Shown here in pieces: positions 22,943 through 35,109 of a stretch of 37,403 nt of DNA. Under the pieces are notes generated by a model. That model had not been told where the DNA came from, made no database searches, and saw nothing but the letters and a program-made list of their open reading frames with translations. The translations under genes and the position numbers were made by a program. This DNA is from Candidatus Magasanikiibacteriota bacterium. Lineage in GTDB: Bacteria; Patescibacteriota; Patescibacteriia; Magasanikbacterales; UBA922. The stretch is taken from assembly GCA_014729395.1 (NCBI GenBank), contig WJJZ01000009.1, forward strand, positions 1 to 37,403, read 5' to 3'. How positions within the stretch are numbered: position 1 is the stretch's first letter; the number at the start of each line of letters is the position of its first letter.

Positions 22943-24229
22943 ATGAACAGAACAAAAATAGAATTACTAGCTCCGGCAGGTAGTATTGAAAAAATGCGTT
23001 ATGCCTTTGCCTATGGTGCGGACGCGGTATATATGGGAATACCGGATTTTAGTTTACGAGTTAGGATAAATAATTTTACATTGGACACGGTAGAGCAAGC
23101 AATTAAAGAAGCACATGATCTGGGCAAGAAAATTTATGTGACGATAAATATATATGCCCACAACGAACATTTGAAAAACCTGCCTGATTATTTGAAAAAA
23201 TTAAAAAAAATGAAACCGGATGCTTTTATTATATCTGATCCCGGTGTAATGCAATTTGCCAAAAAATATGCCGGCCAAATTCCAATCCATGTATCCACAC
23301 AAGCTAATGTTACCAATTGGTCGGCTGCTAAATTTTGGCACAGCCAAGGAGTGGAGAGAGTAATACTCGGCAGGGAAGTGTCAATAGAAGAAATAAAAGA
23401 AATACATGAAAAAGTACCGGAATTGGAACTGGAGCATTTTATCCATGGCGCTATGTGTATGAGCTATTCGGGTCGTTGTATGCTTAGTTCTTGGCTTACG
23501 GGTAGGTCGGCAAACTTGGGAGATTGTGCTCAGCCCTGCCGTTGGAAGTATTCTCCACAATTAGCCGAGCACCATGTTTTAAGTGCAGAGGTGGAAGAAC
23601 CGTTGCGTCCGGGAGTTAAAATACCGGTGGAAGAAGACAAAAATGGTACCTATATTTTCAATTCCAAAGATATGTGTATGATAGAATATTTGCCGGAAAT
23701 GATAGAAACCGGTCTTGTGAGTTTTAAAATTGAGGGGAGAGCGAAAAGTCCTGCTTATTTGGCAAGTGTTGTAAAAGCATATAGACAAGCCTTTGATATG
23801 TTAGAGGGTGAAATAGACAAAAAGAAAGCCAAGAAGAAATTAAAGAAAATAAAAAAAGAAATCTTAGACAAATTGGTTCATCGAGGTTATACGACCGGCT
23901 TTGCTTTTGGTAAAGAGTCAGTAGAACAAAATATTGATAATAGCCATATTGGTGGGGAAGAGCAATTTGTGGGAGAAGTGCTGAACTGTAAAAAACATGA
24001 TAAAAACTATTTGGTTAAAATCAGACCACACAATGCTATTAAACTTGGTGATGAACTAAGAATCATGCGGCCTAAAAGTGAAGATGTTCGGTTAACTATT
24101 AAAAACATGTATAATGAGAAGGGAGAAGAGATTGAAAGCGGACACGGGGGTGCGGGGAAGAATGTTGTATTAGAGTTGGATAGAGGGGTGGAGGAGTTTG
24201 GGATTGTATTTAAGAATTTGGAATTATAA
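22943..24229 (+). CDS. Peptidase U32 family protein (TrhP/YegQ-like tRNA hydroxylation protein)
   Basis: ATG 22943; ELLAPAG, HVSTQANVTN, HGAMCMSYSGRC...CAQPCRW Fe-S motif and SFKIEGR. Confidence 0.9.
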   Translation: MNRTKIELLAPAGSIEKMRYAFAYGADAVYMGIPDFSLRVRINNFTLDTVEQAIKEAHDLGKKIYVTINIYAHNEHLKNLPDYLKKLKKMKPDAFIISDPGVMQFAKKYAGQIPIHVSTQANVTNWSAAKFWHSQGVERVILGREVSIEEIKEIHEKVPELELEHFIHGAMCMSYSGRCMLSSWLTGRSANLGDCAQPCRWKYSPQLAEHHVLSAEVEEPLRPGVKIPVEEDKNGTYIFNSKDMCMIEYLPEMIETGLVSFKIEGRAKSPAYLASVVKAYRQAFDMLEGEIDKKKAKKKLKKIKKEILDKLVHRGYTTGFAFGKESVEQNIDNSHIGGEEQFVGEVLNCKKHDKNYLVKIRPHNAIKLGDELRIMRPKSEDVRLTIKNMYNEKGEEIESGHGGAGKNVVLELDRGVEEFGIVFKNLEL

Positions 24230-24313
24230 ATTTTGAATTTTGAATCAATTTTAAATTCATTAATTAAATAATTAAGAATTCAATCAAAATTTTAAACTCA
24301 AAATTCGAAATTC
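24212..24313. repeat. Inverted heptamer array (TTGAATT/AAAATTC type)
   Basis: AAGAATT TGGAATT ATAAATT TTGAATT TTGAATC ... AAAATTT TAAACTC AAAATTC GAAATTC; contains the U32 stop and ends 5 nt before the ruvA ATG. Confidence 0.88.
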
Positions 24314-24318
24314 TACAT

Positions 24319-24897
24319 ATGATTAGTTTTATAAAAGGAAAAATTTTAAATAAAGAAAAAAATCTTATTACAGTGATGACATCTGGTGGTCTTGGCTTTG
24401 AAATAAATCTATCAAACCTGCATGCCGGTGAATTAAAGATGGATCAAGAAGTAGAATTAAATACTTATTTAAAAGTCAGTGAGAATGCAATGGAATTATA
24501 CGGCTTTAGAACTATGGAAGAAAAAGATTTTTTTGGGCTTTTATTATCAGTTTCCGGAATTGGTCCAAAGGGAGCTATGAATGTGCTTAATTTGGGTTCA
24601 ATCGAACAGATTCAGTCAGCTATCTCAAGAGGCGATACCGCTTATCTTACACAAGTGCAGGGAATGGGAAAGAAGACCGCGGAGAGAGTGGTTGTGGAAC
24701 TCAAGTCAAAAATCAGCAAGCAGCCGGTCGTTAGCGGTAAGCGAGATGAAAAACAAGGAGAAAAATTGGGGGAAGTTATGGATGGTTTGGTTGCTATGGG
24801 GTATTCAAAAGATGAAGCGAAAAGGGCGGTAGTCGGTTTGGAAACAGAAGATAAAACAACAGAAGAATTATTGAAACAAGCTTTAAGTAATAAATAA
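24319..24897 (+). CDS. ruvA: Holliday junction DNA-binding protein RuvA
   Basis: MISFIKG, LYGF, LLSVSGIGPKGA, GMGKKTAERVVVELK and LVAMGYS motifs. Confidence 0.96.
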   Translation: MISFIKGKILNKEKNLITVMTSGGLGFEINLSNLHAGELKMDQEVELNTYLKVSENAMELYGFRTMEEKDFFGLLLSVSGIGPKGAMNVLNLGSIEQIQSAISRGDTAYLTQVQGMGKKTAERVVVELKSKISKQPVVSGKRDEKQGEKLGEVMDGLVAMGYSKDEAKRAVVGLETEDKTTEELLKQALSNK

Positions 24898-24898
24898 A

Positions 24899-24922
24899 AA
24901 AAGCATCTTTTTCGGATGCTTT
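24899..24922. terminator. Bidirectional terminator
   Basis: AAAGCATC TTTTTCG GATGCTTT. Confidence 0.65.
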
Positions 24923-24945
24923 GCTTTGGTCGACCCTATTTTTTA

Positions 24946-25275
24946 TCAGTGCGCAATATCTAGCGCTTTGACATAATTTGAGGTCTCAAATAGATAATAA
25001 TCGTCACGAACATAAATAACCAGATTGCTGCTAGGATTTTTTTTTATTTGAAATCCACGACCCGTAACTTTTTTCATTATAGAAATTACGGCTTCTATAG
25101 AATACATCATGGAACTAGACACCAATAATTTATCATCACCGTCCCAATCAACTAGGGTTAGTTGGCCATGTTCGTTTTCCGGCAGGCGGAACATCTGACA
25201 TGTTTTTGAGTTTCTATCAAAAACAAGTTTAACCACCTTTTGCATATCATTGGGCCTTGTTTCCGGTCGAGACAT
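24946..25275 (-). CDS. Hypothetical protein (109 aa)
   Basis: ATG at 25275 preceded by AAGGAGGT; no recognisable motif. Confidence 0.7.
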   Translation of the reverse strand: MSRPETRPNDMQKVVKLVFDRNSKTCQMFRLPENEHGQLTLVDWDGDDKLLVSSSMMYSIEAVISIMKKVTGRGFQIKKNPSSNLVIYVRDDYYLFETSNYVKALDIAH

Positions 25276-25382
25276 ATTACCTCCTTTTTTAAAGATCTTT
25301 TTCGATTGCGAGAATAAATTATCACTAAAAATATAAAAAGTCAATCAAAAATATTAATTAAATTATAGAGACATTAAAGTAT

Positions 25383-33025: not shown

Positions 33026-33045
33026 TTAGCTCTTTTATACACAAT

Positions 33046-33081
33046 CCCCCCTGCCACATCGTTGACAGGGGGTCTTTTTTT
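33046..33081 (+). terminator. Intrinsic terminator
   Basis: CCCCCTG.CA...TGACAGGGGG followed by a T-run. Confidence 0.8.
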
Positions 33082-33230
33082 GTCTAAATTAAGTCAATAT
33101 TTAAGAAAATCATTAATTTTTTCATATATATTCTAAATATAATTGCTTAGAAATATTGCGCATAAATTACCTGTTTTTTTGAATATATTATGGCATTCAC
33201 AACTTCTCCACAGGTTATATGATTCATCTC

Positions 33231-33259
33231 TTGACAACCTTTTTTAATTGATGTATATT
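33231..33259 (+). promoter_or_regulatory. Promoter of the stand-alone 23S-5S unit
   Basis: TTGACA-17bp-TATATT about 350 nt upstream of 23S. Confidence 0.7.
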
Positions 33260-33589
33260 GATGAGGCATTAAAAAACATAAATACATGTCCAATGCACTG
33301 CTTGGACCTCTGAGAAGATTGAAAATTATCACATGATAGTTATTGAACATCTTAGTTACTCAAATAATTCAAGCAGTTAAAGACAAATTAATTTTTGTTT
33401 GCGACCGCTTGAAGGCGGTTTTTTTAAACTCACTTTTTCATCACTTGGACTAGATTCTGGTATAAGCGATAAGAAAGTGAGGAATAAGAGGTTGAAGCGA
33501 GATGGGCTCGTTACAATTCAATCAACAAACAATTAAGCAAATTGTAAGTAAAATCATGATTATATTCAACGATAATCATGATGGGTAAT

Positions 33590-33618
33590 AAGCACAATTT
33601 TGTGTTTTCGTTGTACGC
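33590..33618 (+). other. 5' strand of the 23S processing stalk (pairs with 36822-36850)
   Basis: AAGCACAATTTTGTGTTTTCGTTGTACGC is nearly the reverse complement of GCGTACTACGGAAACACAAAGCTGTGCTT. Confidence 0.85.
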
Positions 33619-34950
33619 AATATAAGGGCGTACGGTGGATGCCTAGACACTAAAAGTCGATGAAGGACGTCGCAGGGTGCGATAAGCCTCGGTTAGGTCC
33701 CAAGCAACCTTTGACCCGGGGATTTCCGAATGGGGGAACCCACCTCTTTGTGAGGTACCTTATACTGAATTCATAGGTATAAGGGGTCGACCTGGCGAAG
33801 TGAAACATCTCAGTAGCCAGAGGAAAAGAAAACAAATTATGCTTCTTTTCTACACCTTGAAAGTTTTAGCTTTTAAGGTGTAGTAAAAAAAGCTGTGATT
33901 CCCTTAGTAGTGGCGAGCGAACGGGGAACAGCTCAAACCTTTATCGTGTTGTCATATTTTATTGGTCTTCGGACTTTCTAGGATATGACTTAAAGGACAG
34001 GCCGTTGCGATTTAGGTGTTGTAGGGTAAAAACGTCGGTAACCTGTTTAGCCGGATATATTATTTTATATATAATTGAAAATCTCTGGAAAGGGATACCA
34101 AAGAAGGTGATAGTCCTGTAGATAAAATATATATGATAATGTGTTGTTTTTATTCCTGAGTAGGGCGGAGCACGTGAAATTCCGTCTGAATCTGCCGCGA
34201 CTATGCGGTAAAGCTAAATACTTTTAGTGATCGATAGTGAACAAGTACCGTGAGGGAAAGGTGAAAAGCAGCCCGGGAGGGCGATGAAATAGTATCTGAA
34301 ACCGTACGCTTACAATGAGTTGGAGCCCGCTTTTGCGGGTGACAGCGTTCCTATTGAAGAATGAGCCTGTGAGTGTGTAGTTGTTGCAAGCTTAAGAGCC
34401 TATGGTTCGAAGGCGTAGGGAAACCAAGTCTTAACCGGCGATTTAGTAATAATTACACGACCCGAAACCGAGTGAGCAATCCATGACCAGGTTGAACCCC
34501 GACGAAAGTCGGGGGGAGGACCGAACCCACGCGCCGTGCAACACGCGGGGATGAGTTGTGGATAGCGGAGAAATTCCTATCGAACTCGGTAATAGCTGGT
34601 TCTCCTCGAAATAGCTTTAGGGCTAGCTGTATGTGTTCCTGCTGGTGGTAGAGCACTGGATGAGAGCGAGGTCCCTCGGGATACTCCTTTCAATCAAACT
34701 CCGAATGCCAGTAGTCAAAACATGCAAGTCAGACTGTGGGGGCTAAGCTCCATGGTCAAAAGGGAAACAGCCCAGATCGTCAACTAAGGTCCCTAAATCA
34801 CCACTAAGTGTAAAAGGCGGTGAAGATTCTTATACAACCAGGAGGTTGGCTTAGAAGCAGCCACCCTTTAAAGAAAGCGTAACAGCTCACTGGTCAAGAG
34901 TCTTTGCGCCGAAAATGTACCGGGGCTAAGTGGTGTACCGAAGTTACGAA

Positions 34951-35109
34951 TTATTGTGTCTCACTAACGTTCGACACTGAATTACGAATTAAGAATTATT
35001 AATTTTGATTCAATTTTGAATTATTTAATGATTAAACATTAGAAATTCAATCAAAATTTAAAATTTTAAATTCAAAATTTGAGTGGCGAGCGATAGCGAG
35101 ACACGATAG
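34951..35109 (+). other. Intervening sequence in 23S helix 45
   Basis: Between TACCGAAG and GGTAGAGGAGC: a stem of about 27 bp capped by an AT-rich heptamer array of about 100 nt. Confidence 0.88.

Follow-up and report, generated by a model that had tools for sequence, protein, structure and literature searches.

The helix-45 intervening sequences (IVSs) of Salmonella, Yersinia and Campylobacter 23S rRNA are hairpins of ~100–150 nt that are cut by RNase III and occur sporadically among strains; to our knowledge, they lack tandem heptamers and have no known scattered copies elsewhere in the genome. The Correia/NEMIS elements of Neisseria and the RPEs of Rickettsia are palindromic repeats of ~100–150 nt that lie in transcribed spacers and form RNA hairpins; RNase III cleaves Correia elements, and RPEs are also found within RNA genes and ORFs. 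The PF05635 (S23p) family of four-helix-bundle proteins is common in cyanobacteria and homologous to the DGR protein Avd.

The Coxiella IVS lies at helix 45, carries an S23p ORF and is excised by RNase III, which cuts at the first of the heptamers beside the ORF (PMC4990558). The same source mentions helix-45 IVSs without an ORF, among them those of Salmonella, Yersinia and Campylobacter, and in its discussion it treats where bacterial rRNA IVSs come from, and what they mean, as questions open since 1990. In CPR 23S rRNA, short ORF-less insertions at 23IS2 and 23IS4 have been suggested to be RNase III-type IVSs, and 23S_rRNA_IVP ORFs occur at other rRNA sites (PMC11270868). Intergenic tandem heptamers have been described in Xanthomonas (GGGAATC, 70–75 convergent pairs per genome) and Nostoc (GGGGA(C/T)T, or STRR; PMC4692102), and in Beggiatoaceae (TAACTGA; PMC4679880); both papers are silent on S23p and on 23S rRNA.

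Here we analyse a window, that is, the whole stretch of 37,403 nt presented above, from a Candidatus Magasanikiibacteriota genome of 1.01 Mb. An earlier note, made from the sequence letters, had proposed that one heptamer element sits both between a U32-family gene and ruvA and inside a helix-45 IVS, and had taken it as established that the helix-45 IVSs of Leptospira and Coxiella encode four-helix-bundle proteins and are excised without religation, which for Coxiella agrees with the account in PMC4990558. As far as that account goes, the IVS of the window resembles those of Coxiella and Leptospira in its position at helix 45, its ~27–28-bp terminal stem and the tandem heptamers within the stem. 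It differs from the Coxiella IVS in being ORF-less and 159 nt long instead of 428 nt, in having two inverted heptamer arrays where the description of the latter gives an upstream array only, and in an inner module that is multi-copy and phylum-wide; excision, described there, is predicted here. With the 23IS2/23IS4 insertions it shares phylum, site class, shortness and absence of an ORF, whereas the main text of PMC11270868 gives no repeat anatomy, dispersed copies or link to S23p cassettes.

Results

The 23S rRNA gene of the window measures 3221 nt versus the 2925 positions of the Rfam model, and the Infernal alignment places a 159-nt insert between model positions ~1218 and 1219, in the loop of the helix-45 hairpin (positions ~1201–1226; Table 1). 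The predicted fold of RNA from 34940 to 35120 is a single long hairpin (−58.4 kcal/mol; z −9.5; equalled by 0 of 200 shuffles), with an outer stem of ~26–27 bp capped by the heptamer module, much as the earlier note had read it. The 5′ half of this stem lies outside the dispersed repeat; similar outer-stem motifs are found in the IVSs of G177 and G059 and, by eye, of G075, G065 and G087. Placement in the loop, a long stem formed by complementary termini and sporadic occurrence in relatives assign the insert to the helix-45 class of IVSs. It has no gene, since 159 nt are too short for an S23p ORF (~115–130 aa); the ORF list contains no PF05635 ORF in the IVS, nor in the 102 nt of copy A, which are likewise too short. 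As its inner 105 nt are a dispersed repeat, it is indeed a gene-less repeat element. Among public sequencing runs, none contained more than a quarter of the words of this 23S, and the contigs examined derived from other organisms.

Table 1. Positions of the IVS, the heptamer modules and the S23p cassette in the window
Feature	Position	Strand	Remarks
S23p / four-helix-bundle gene	8118..8510	+	PF05635 75.9 bits, TIGR02436 76.3 bits
Upstream arm of the window S23p cassette, tandem 11-mers (ACAATAATTAT type)	8068..8119	+	
Downstream arm of the window S23p cassette, inverted 11-mers	8511..8585	+	
Copy A of the module	24212..24313	+	occupies the U32–ruvA spacer
23S rRNA gene	33611..36831	+	Rfam LSU_rRNA_bacteria, 2509 bits, full length
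ORF-less IVS, terminal loop of helix 45	34951..35109	+	unaligned insert, one-hairpin fold
5′ half of the G+C-containing IVS outer stem	34951..34976	+	pairs with 35082–35109 in MFE and centroid folds
Copy B of the palindromic heptamer module	34977..35081	+	~78% to copy A; 70–81% to nine further genome places
3′ half of the IVS outer stem	35082..35109	+	fold

Copy A and copy B are homologous over 101 nt, aligning end to end with a single 2-nt gap; their local score of 56 compares with 26.1±3.3 (maximum 36) in 1000 dinucleotide shuffles, which rules out AT content as the sole cause of the likeness. Each is an imperfect palindrome in which a centre separates GAATTNN heptamers (left) from NNAATTC heptamers (right); the non-repeat centre and the junctions are collinear in the alignment. 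The 16-mer AATTCAATCAAAATTT, at 24277–24292 and 35044–35059, occurs twice in the window versus 0.02 times expected, a count that none of 100 dinucleotide shuffles reached. Both the common layout and the 16-mer had been noticed before, at the correct positions. At the first site, the U32-family gene (22901–24229; best match TrhP, with a score below that model's cut-off) takes its final five codons and its stop codon from copy A, which ends 5 nt upstream of the ATG of ruvA (24319–24897). In G008 and G013 the U32 gene terminates without these codons. Comparison with G001, G008 and G013, in which gene order differs, revealed no orthologous empty site between U32 and ruvA and no definable target-site duplication.

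What had been described as two copies turned out to be two members of a family with 11 places in the genome (E below 1e-9). A 15-mer core of the family occurs exactly 7 times in the genome, every time within a family copy. Six of the 10 non-rRNA copies fill spacers separating co-directional ORFs, and many copies directly adjoin start codons. An rRNA loop and intra-operon spacers are the places where copies lie. In being short, multi-copy, dispersed and bounded by inverted ends, the module resembles MITE-type elements. A scan with an exact 23-base pattern matched at least 120 stretches, almost all of them from MAGs of Patescibacteria, and 80 loci were listed for analysis: 42 of these align with the IVS module over at least 85 nt at 67–77% identity, and none of the 80 had a 23S context as judged by anchors.

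At helix 45 itself, insertions are sporadic among relatives. In the family/order sample, three genomes of 18 (G008, G015 and G030) have 133–174 nt between the anchors and the other 15 have 25–36 nt; G036 has ~144 nt. Across 74 genomes of the phylum, with sizes computed by hand from coordinates, the extra sequence is at least 100 nt in 20, ~40–55 nt in 8 and absent in 46. Of 14 other insertions with at least 100 nt between anchors, ten are likewise heptamer hairpins, both halves having period 7 (nine insertions) or period 8 (one), and the helix-45 IVS of G075 aligns with the one described here. The earlier note had also envisaged ORF-bearing versions; since none of the 74 genomes had an ORF-sized insert, the S23p-bearing form was not seen at helix 45.

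Such forms exist elsewhere. At three of the 80 loci listed (L161, L183 and L184), an S23p ORF, called with a profile of 19 PF05635 proteins at E ~1e-30, lies directly within the arms. Both arms are homologous to the halves of the module at L161 (left 49/59, right 31/36) and L183 (left 43/55, right 37/48); at L184 the left arm alone is supported by score and the right arm by eye. The right arms of the ORF-bearing loci, which were absent from the search pattern, score 26 versus 11±2 in shuffles (maxima 18–20). The S23p gene is alone inside, without a transposase, and may point either way with respect to the arm motif. The earlier note had staked its proposal on a similarity beyond AT content and on four-helix-bundle genes flanked by this heptamer; the homology of the arms at L161 and L183 therefore leaves the proposal standing and links the rRNA IVS directly to the repeat/four-helix-bundle elements. 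Arms of the GAATTTT/AAATTTT type accompany one well-separated S23p clade in four genomes. Among the S23p genes of the window's own genome (G000), none has clear GAATTTT arms; the nearest candidate, C6:38892-39272, encodes a protein of the right clade, with arms that match only at E ~1e-3.

The arrangement holds generally for S23p genes: of 50 loci sampled in the phylum, 45 score above the 95th percentile of controls at shifted positions (n=194), and 21 score above the highest control. The flanking arrays are inverted and consist of 4–5 tandem 7- or 8-mers, with a unit that is particular to each gene and combines a constant core of 4–5 nt with variable positions. Upstream and downstream periods agree in 44 of the 50 loci (7/7 in 29, 8/8 in 9); the arms have a median length of 4.4 units, and for 51 of the 88 the nearest whole number is 4 or 5. 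Outside the phylum, four of six S23p genes on cyanobacterial or Gemmatimonadota plasmids score 28–36; of the other two, one reaches 15 and has inverted heptamers that can be seen by eye, and the second reaches 10. Of 121 sampled Patescibacteria, 80 have PF05635, in up to 17 copies. When the 968 ORFs of G000 are ranked by flanking inverted repeats, its four S23p genes take places 2, 3, 5 and 44. The one in third place is that of the window, which is the ORF-bearing form of a sister family with period 11 in both arms; the inverted repeat I23 of its upstream arm (42 nt) is 81% complementary to 8538–8579.

Discussion

Because copies of the inner module form a family, S23p genes lie between such arrays and other helix-45 IVSs are built alike, we propose that the IVS of this 23S rRNA is the gene-less form of an S23p cassette. 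Taken jointly with excision by RNase III, we give this reading a probability of roughly 0.7. An S23p cassette would consist of two inverted arrays, each of 4–5 tandem heptamers, around a centre holding the PF05635/S23p gene or, perhaps through ORF loss, only ~30 nt. On inspection of the sequence, the module has two such arrays, and its arms are homologous to those of ORF-bearing members; copy A and the IVS lack the gene.

Why would an insertion be tolerated within a ribosomal RNA gene? Once transcribed into pre-23S rRNA, the arms may pair and, together with the outer stem, form a duplex of ~60 bp, which RNase III would cut, as experiments have shown for the IVSs of Coxiella, Leptospira and Salmonella. 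The insert would then leave without religation, and the 23S rRNA would probably persist as two pieces joined by the remaining structure. Tolerance in rRNA loops and operon spacers would be expected because the insert either removes itself at the RNA level or forms a harmless surface hairpin.

This second possibility, that the IVS stays in the mature 23S rRNA as an unexcised surface expansion segment on helix 45, has perhaps one chance in four in our judgement and survives best among the alternatives. It is consistent with smaller, unexcised-type expansions of 58, 57 and 21 nt in domain I of the same 23S, and with the weakness of the A+U-rich inner stem: copy A alone folds at −22.2 kcal/mol (z −1.74; 11 of 200 shuffles equally good). 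Nevertheless, the complete stem is long and nearly perfect, the genome encodes RNase III, and all the experimentally tested helix-45 IVSs treated in PMC4990558 and PMC11270868 are cut by this enzyme. The balance of G·U to A·C oppositions was 68:38 in 15 IVS hairpins (p 0.005 versus 0.5; p 0.096 versus a composition-based 0.56), 113:90 (p 0.12) across 45 S23p cassettes and 11:9, without strand bias, across six intra-operon copies. These ratios therefore do not establish RNA-level pairing of the arms. For hairpin processing of the mRNA copies, which the earlier note had also suggested, the fold of copy A and the operon copies give no support so far.

Somewhat less probable, though compatible with a gene-less cassette, is that the arrays are protein-binding sites, in DNA or RNA, for a pentameric S23p ring or another factor that contacts one unit per subunit. 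The gene-less copies would then be extra targets, making up a kind of regulon or partition-like set in which the copy in rRNA is incidental. Arms of 4 or 5 units, each with a constant core, would suit the five chains in the crystal entries 2rld and 2gsc of S23p homologues and the homopentamer described in PMC4990558. Paralogue-specific units with gene-less arrays of the same unit in the same genome, the association of one arm type with one S23p clade and the many copies at start codons point the same way. However, the period does not follow S23p phylogeny (12 changes versus 13.9 in shuffles, 98 of 1000 being as low), an arm of 30–35 nt equally fits the stable stem required by RNase III, and 11 GAATTTT copies lie in G000 without a clearly cognate S23p gene.

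A less likely alternative still makes the palindromic module the primary mobile element, MITE- or REP-like, with S23p genes as captured or inserting passengers, so that the IVS never contained a gene. The excess of gene-less over ORF-bearing forms (at least 42 versus 3 among the 80 loci listed, 11 versus 0 in G000) and the indifference to ORF orientation would fit. Yet nearly all S23p genes, in deep clades and at least three phyla, have their own arrays with differing units, which makes repeated capture hard to invoke, and protein clade and arm type coincide. Chance or convergent low complexity, through replication slippage in A+T-rich DNA, was rejected: both elements are A+T-rich tandem repeats in a genome with many heptamer tracts of other units, but a score 9 sd above shuffles, the collinear centre and junctions, the repeated 16-mer, the 11 genome copies and the matches to the 23-base pattern, almost all in one phylum, make it extremely improbable.

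The IVS belongs to a single family that also provides operon spacer hairpins and, in other genomes, the frame of a four-helix-bundle gene. The old idea that an IVS is the remnant of a mobile element thereby becomes a testable statement, and the uncharacterised PF05635 family acquires a candidate nucleic-acid partner. In practical terms, such inserts disrupt the assembly and modelling of rRNA, and the repeats merit masking or annotation in CPR genomes. The module would work like Correia/NEMIS elements and RPEs, to which it has no sequence relation; its arms are tandem heptamers instead of unique terminal repeats, and the protein encoded by its ORF-bearing form is a four-helix bundle rather than a transposase. 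A shared explanation is also suggested for intergenic heptamers in several phyla, since the repeats of Xanthomonas, Nostoc and Beggiatoaceae are likewise tandem heptamers in spacers and cyanobacterial S23p genes are array-flanked; a common origin is a hypothesis. More speculatively, and in our view improbable as a whole, pentameric S23p might read its own heptamers, one unit per subunit, much as TRAP does with its triplet repeats, and S23p cassettes might be widespread selfish or domesticated modules that remove themselves from RNA through RNase III and live in rRNA loops, operons and cas operons, with ORF-less IVSs and the STRR, Xanthomonas and Beggiatoaceae heptamers as gene-less derivatives. 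Within G000, gene-less copies sharing the unit of a cassette are found at ~14–16 places for the 11-mer family and at ~6 for the ATTTATG family.

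A palindromic module shared by the helix-45 insert and the rest of the genome

Alignment with the bacterial LSU model places an intervening sequence (IVS) within the helix-45 hairpin of the 23S rRNA (see table). As RNA, positions 34940-35120 fold into a single hairpin (-58.4 kcal/mol, z -9.5, a value equalled in 0 of 200 shuffles). Its outer stem measures about 26-27 bp and carries a heptamer module as its cap, an arrangement that the earlier note had also read. The module is an imperfect palindrome of GAATTNN heptamers on the left, a centre and NNAATTC heptamers on the right. 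Direct reading of the sequence confirmed that this layout, which the earlier note had described in two places, is found both in the inner part of the IVS (copy B) and between a U32-family gene and ruvA (copy A). The 16-mer common to 24277-24292 and 35044-35059 also withstood scrutiny, with two occurrences against 0.02 expected and none of 100 shuffles reaching two. Moreover, both copies align over their full length (101 nt, about 78% identity, one short gap). The local score is 56, whereas 1000 shuffles that preserve dinucleotides score 26.1±3.3 and reach 36 at most.

The resemblance extends to the whole source genome (17 contigs, 1.01 Mb, around 36% G+C), where blastn searches with both elements identified 11 places with E below 1e-9, the two copies in the window included, together with weaker partial matches. 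The window is a complete contig of 37.4 kb from this genome, which its relatives and the named matches of the repeat would assign to the Patescibacteria (CPR). The 15-mer core AATTCAATCAAAATT occurs exactly seven times, always within family copies. Copies of the arrays were counted by blastn, TRF pairing and regular-expression counts with shuffled units being too crude owing to unit rotations and mismatch limits. Six of the ten copies located outside the rRNA fill the spacer between ORFs of the same direction, 0-10 nt from a stop or start codon. The final five codons of the U32-family gene and its stop codon are supplied by copy A, which stops 5 nt short of the ruvA ATG. In two relatives (G008 and G013) the U32 gene terminates just short of the point where copy A lies. 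At U32-ruvA, where gene order differs in the relatives, neither an orthologous empty site nor a target duplication could be defined. Correia/NEMIS elements and the palindromic elements of Rickettsia serve as comparisons for the module.

Features in the window and in the rest of the source genome (C, contig; C4 is the window)
Feature	Position	Remark
23S rRNA gene	33611-36831	
IVS	34951-35109	159 nt, unaligned insert within helix-45 hairpin (bacterial LSU model alignment)
Module copy A	24212-24313	
Module copy B	34977-35081	
Module copies beyond the window	C16:41931, C16:58043, C5:1148, C5:4768, C10:3307, C10:36826, C3:404, C1:56136, C11:94744	blastn, 70-86% identity
S23p gene in the window	8118-8510	PF05635
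11-mer palindromes, window	551-630, 4162-4256, 7298-7407, 17208-17339, 30555-30607	
11-mer palindromes, rest of genome	C1:8694, C17:1811, C5:132540/136991/138654, C6:107398/186830/205249/272718	
AAATTC/GGATTT-type tandem arrays	158-193, 21779-21814	short, in spacers
tRNA upstream of 23S	30730-30811	
239-aa ORF	32306-33025	no Pfam match
Class-I tRNA synthetase ORF	17333-20332	999 aa
In-frame heptamer tracts	17940-17969, 18760-18791, 19712-19743, 19910-19940	
Reverse-transcriptase ORF	C11:140565-141194	PF00078; given as 422 aa

Some minor observations concern the surroundings of both elements. In G008, a perfect palindrome, rich in G+C and about 100 nt long (C26, ~4990-5110), lies upstream of ruvA, at the position taken in the window by the A+T-rich heptamer module. 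The two AAATTC/GGATTT-type arrays bear a weak resemblance to the right arm of copy B. Domain I of the 23S rRNA (33611-34200) carries three more inserts relative to the LSU model (58, 57 and 21 nt), which were ruled out as heptamer-type and resemble ordinary expansion segments. On the contig, the 23S gene has no 16S rRNA gene upstream and is preceded only by a tRNA and protein ORFs, and the rRNA genes of this genome may be unlinked.

Helix-45 inserts across the phylum

The insert belongs to the known kind of IVS, and ORF-less inserts in helix 45 have already been noted in the CPR; a survey records many short ORF-less insertions at classical IVS sites and, in the passages that describe them, gives no anatomy (PMC11270868). 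Among 18 family or order relatives with this region resolved, the distance between helix-45 anchors is 133-174 nt in three (G008, G015 and G030) and 25-36 nt in the other 15; it is about 144 nt in a further genome, G036. In a phylum sample of 74 genomes with both flanks on one contig, insert sizes, computed by hand from coordinates, amounted to at least 100 extra nt in 20, about 40-55 in eight and none in 46. The largest does not exceed about 220 nt and therefore none of the 74 holds an ORF.

Nineteen of the 20 long inserts were fetched, and in 14 the anchors were 100 nt or more apart. Both halves of the insert have a period of 7 in nine of them and of 8 in one; another has period 7 in a single half and three have neither. 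The outer stem is G+C-richer in most inserts, and its motifs are similar in the source genome, G177 and G059 and, by eye, also in G075, G065 and G087. The G075 insert aligns to the module of the source genome through the left arm and centre, and the unit of the G065 insert, TTTTGCA, also flanks one of the source genome's genes of the four-helix-bundle family S23p (PF05635, 23S_rRNA_IVP).

The same repeat with and without an S23p gene

One genome per species was scanned for a pattern of 23 specified bases, which covers the last heptamer on the left together with the junction and the centre, and at least 120 stretches matched. Almost all of the 80 loci among the matches listed belong to named MAGs of Patescibacteria, from many candidate classes, several genomes having 2-4 matches each among them. 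Gene-less copies account for 42 of these 80 loci, which align with the IVS module over 85 nt or more at 67-77% identity. Some exact matches come from MAGs with the labels Bdellovibrionales, Gammaproteobacteria or Planctomycetaceae (L120, L125, L131, L145, L149, L163, L166, L173, L176-L179 and L189), which may reflect mislabelled bins or transfer outside Patescibacteria.

The earlier note had further proposed a search for four-helix-bundle genes flanked by this heptamer. In three of the 80 listed loci an S23p ORF adjoins one arm and has the partner arm on its far side: L161 (a Parcubacteria-group MAG), L183 (Gottesmanbacteria) and L184 (Buchananbacteria). Their ORFs match a profile of a 19-protein alignment with E around 1e-30, and these ORF-bearing forms encode S23p only. 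The right arms lay outside the search pattern and match the right half of the module at 31/36 positions in L161 and 37/48 in L183, each scoring 26 against about 11±2 in shuffles (maxima 18-20); that of L184, where the scored stretch was misplaced, is visible by eye only. The three proteins, together with that of L156, encoded 2 kb from a module copy, share one well-separated S23p clade (100% SH-aLRT), which also contains two genes of the source genome and, from G013, the gene flanked by AAATTTT arms (L050). Arms of a second kind, GAATTAN, accompany another S23p clade (L062, L069, L075, L079 and L080).

S23p genes between inverted tandem arrays

The association of S23p genes with inverted short-tandem-repeat arrays is a general one. 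The source genome has four PF05635 genes, including that of the window and another at C6:38892-39272, each flanked by such arrays with a unit of its own. The window's cassette, at 8068-8585, uses an 11-mer (ACAATAATTAT type); the other units are ATTTATG, TTTTGCA/AAATTNN and one resembling TCTCTAA. When the 968 predicted ORFs are scored for inverted repeats in their flanks, the four genes rank 2, 3, 5 and 44. S23p genes were found in 80 of 121 sampled phylum genomes, with up to 17 copies. Altogether 50 loci were scored, including 16 from family relatives and the 30 best of the phylum sample; 45 exceed the 95th percentile of shifted-position controls (n=194) and 21 the control maximum. Arm periods, estimated separately upstream and downstream, agree in 44 of the 50 loci (7/7 in 29, 8/8 in nine, 11/11 in three, 9/9 in two and 10/10 in one), and the median arm is 4.4 units long (interquartile range 3.4-4.9).

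Outside the phylum, six plasmid-borne S23p genes were fetched of 32 tblastn records. Flank scores are 28-36 in Pseudanabaena, Anabaena sp. 90, Geminocystis and Gemmatirosa, 15 in Stanieria, where GGCAGAA/TTCTGCC arrays are visible, and 10 in Nostoc PCC 7120 gamma, where the heptamer units differ between sides. The long arrays of Pseudanabaena (about 14 AAAAGCT units upstream and about 10 AAAAGCC units downstream of the gene) run in the same direction, and a short inverted array lies farther upstream. On the Pseudanabaena and Anabaena sp. 90 plasmids, the S23p gene and its heptamer arrays lie between cas6 and cas4; S23p genes between cas genes have been reported (PMC3936711). In the published description of the Coxiella IVS, three tandem GACAGAT heptamers separate its stem from the start codon of S23p, and RNase III cuts at the first heptamer (PMC4990558).

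What is new, as far as our searches show, is that the core of an IVS is a dispersed, phylum-wide repeat, that this repeat has ORF-bearing copies and that S23p genes lie as a rule between inverted tandem 7- or 8-mers. Our literature searches, with subscription journals, database family notes and supplements outside their scope, returned no paper that connects inverted heptamer arrays with the S23p genes they flank or describes an IVS as a dispersed repeat. Papers on heptamer repeats in Xanthomonas/Nostoc and Beggiatoaceae leave the repeats unexplained and do not mention S23p.

Possible pairing and excision as RNA

As in the IVSs studied experimentally, the paired arms would form an extended duplex, to be cut out of the precursor by RNase III without religation. 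An RNase III gene is present in the source genome at C6:273787-274182. Among public sequencing runs searched with words of the 23S gene, none contained more than 0.25 of the words and none matched the organism, so that the runs are silent on excision. Four metatranscriptomes compared with 34400-35600 gave no cover over 34974-35096; their contigs crossing the region carry short helix-45 loops of other organisms, with no bearing on excision here.

Mismatches within the arms provide another view. On the rRNA strand of 15 IVS hairpins, G·U exceeds A·C by 68 to 38, with p 0.005 against an even split and p 0.096 when the reference is the share of 0.56 that base composition predicts. The counts are 113 and 90 in 45 S23p cassettes (p 0.12) and 11 and 9 in six operon copies. 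As a sign of RNA pairing this strand bias is suggestive in the IVSs only, and weaker after the correction for composition. The earlier note also suggested that mRNA copies may be processed as RNA hairpins; the fold of copy A by itself is weak (z -1.74) and the operon copies have little strand bias, and therefore such processing is currently without support.

Spread and possible role of S23p

What might S23p do at these repeats? The protein is described as a homopentamer (PMC4990558), and five chains are present in each of the structures 2gsc and 2rld. It is tempting to speculate that S23p binds the repeats with one unit per subunit, which the combination of about five units per arm and a homopentameric ring would fit; an arm of 30-35 nt is also the length that a stable stem needs. 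Co-evolution of the protein with the repeat period was not significant, the S23p tree requiring 12 period changes against a mean of 13.9 in shuffles, 98 of 1000 of which were as low. Spread dependent on a reverse transcriptase, with S23p in an Avd-like role, was not supported: PF00078 was found in two of four S23p-rich genomes searched, the source genome and G048, and was absent from G013 and G141, which have 12 and 17 S23p genes. The single reverse-transcriptase ORF of the source genome lies on a contig with none of the four PF05635 matches.

Units of the S23p cassettes also recur in gene-less arrays of the source genome, at about 14-16 places for the 11-mer and about six for ATTTATG. The tandem 11-mers of ACAATAATTAT type constitute a second family of gene-less, intergenic palindromes, more abundant than the first, whose unit is that of the arms of the S23p gene in the window. 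Heptamer tracts occur within coding sequence as well, in an ORF with Pfam tRNA-synt_1 and Anticodon_1 domains that we take to be isoleucyl-tRNA synthetase; there, a tract of 4.6 AAATCAG units encodes ENQKSEIRNQK between conserved cysteine-containing segments.
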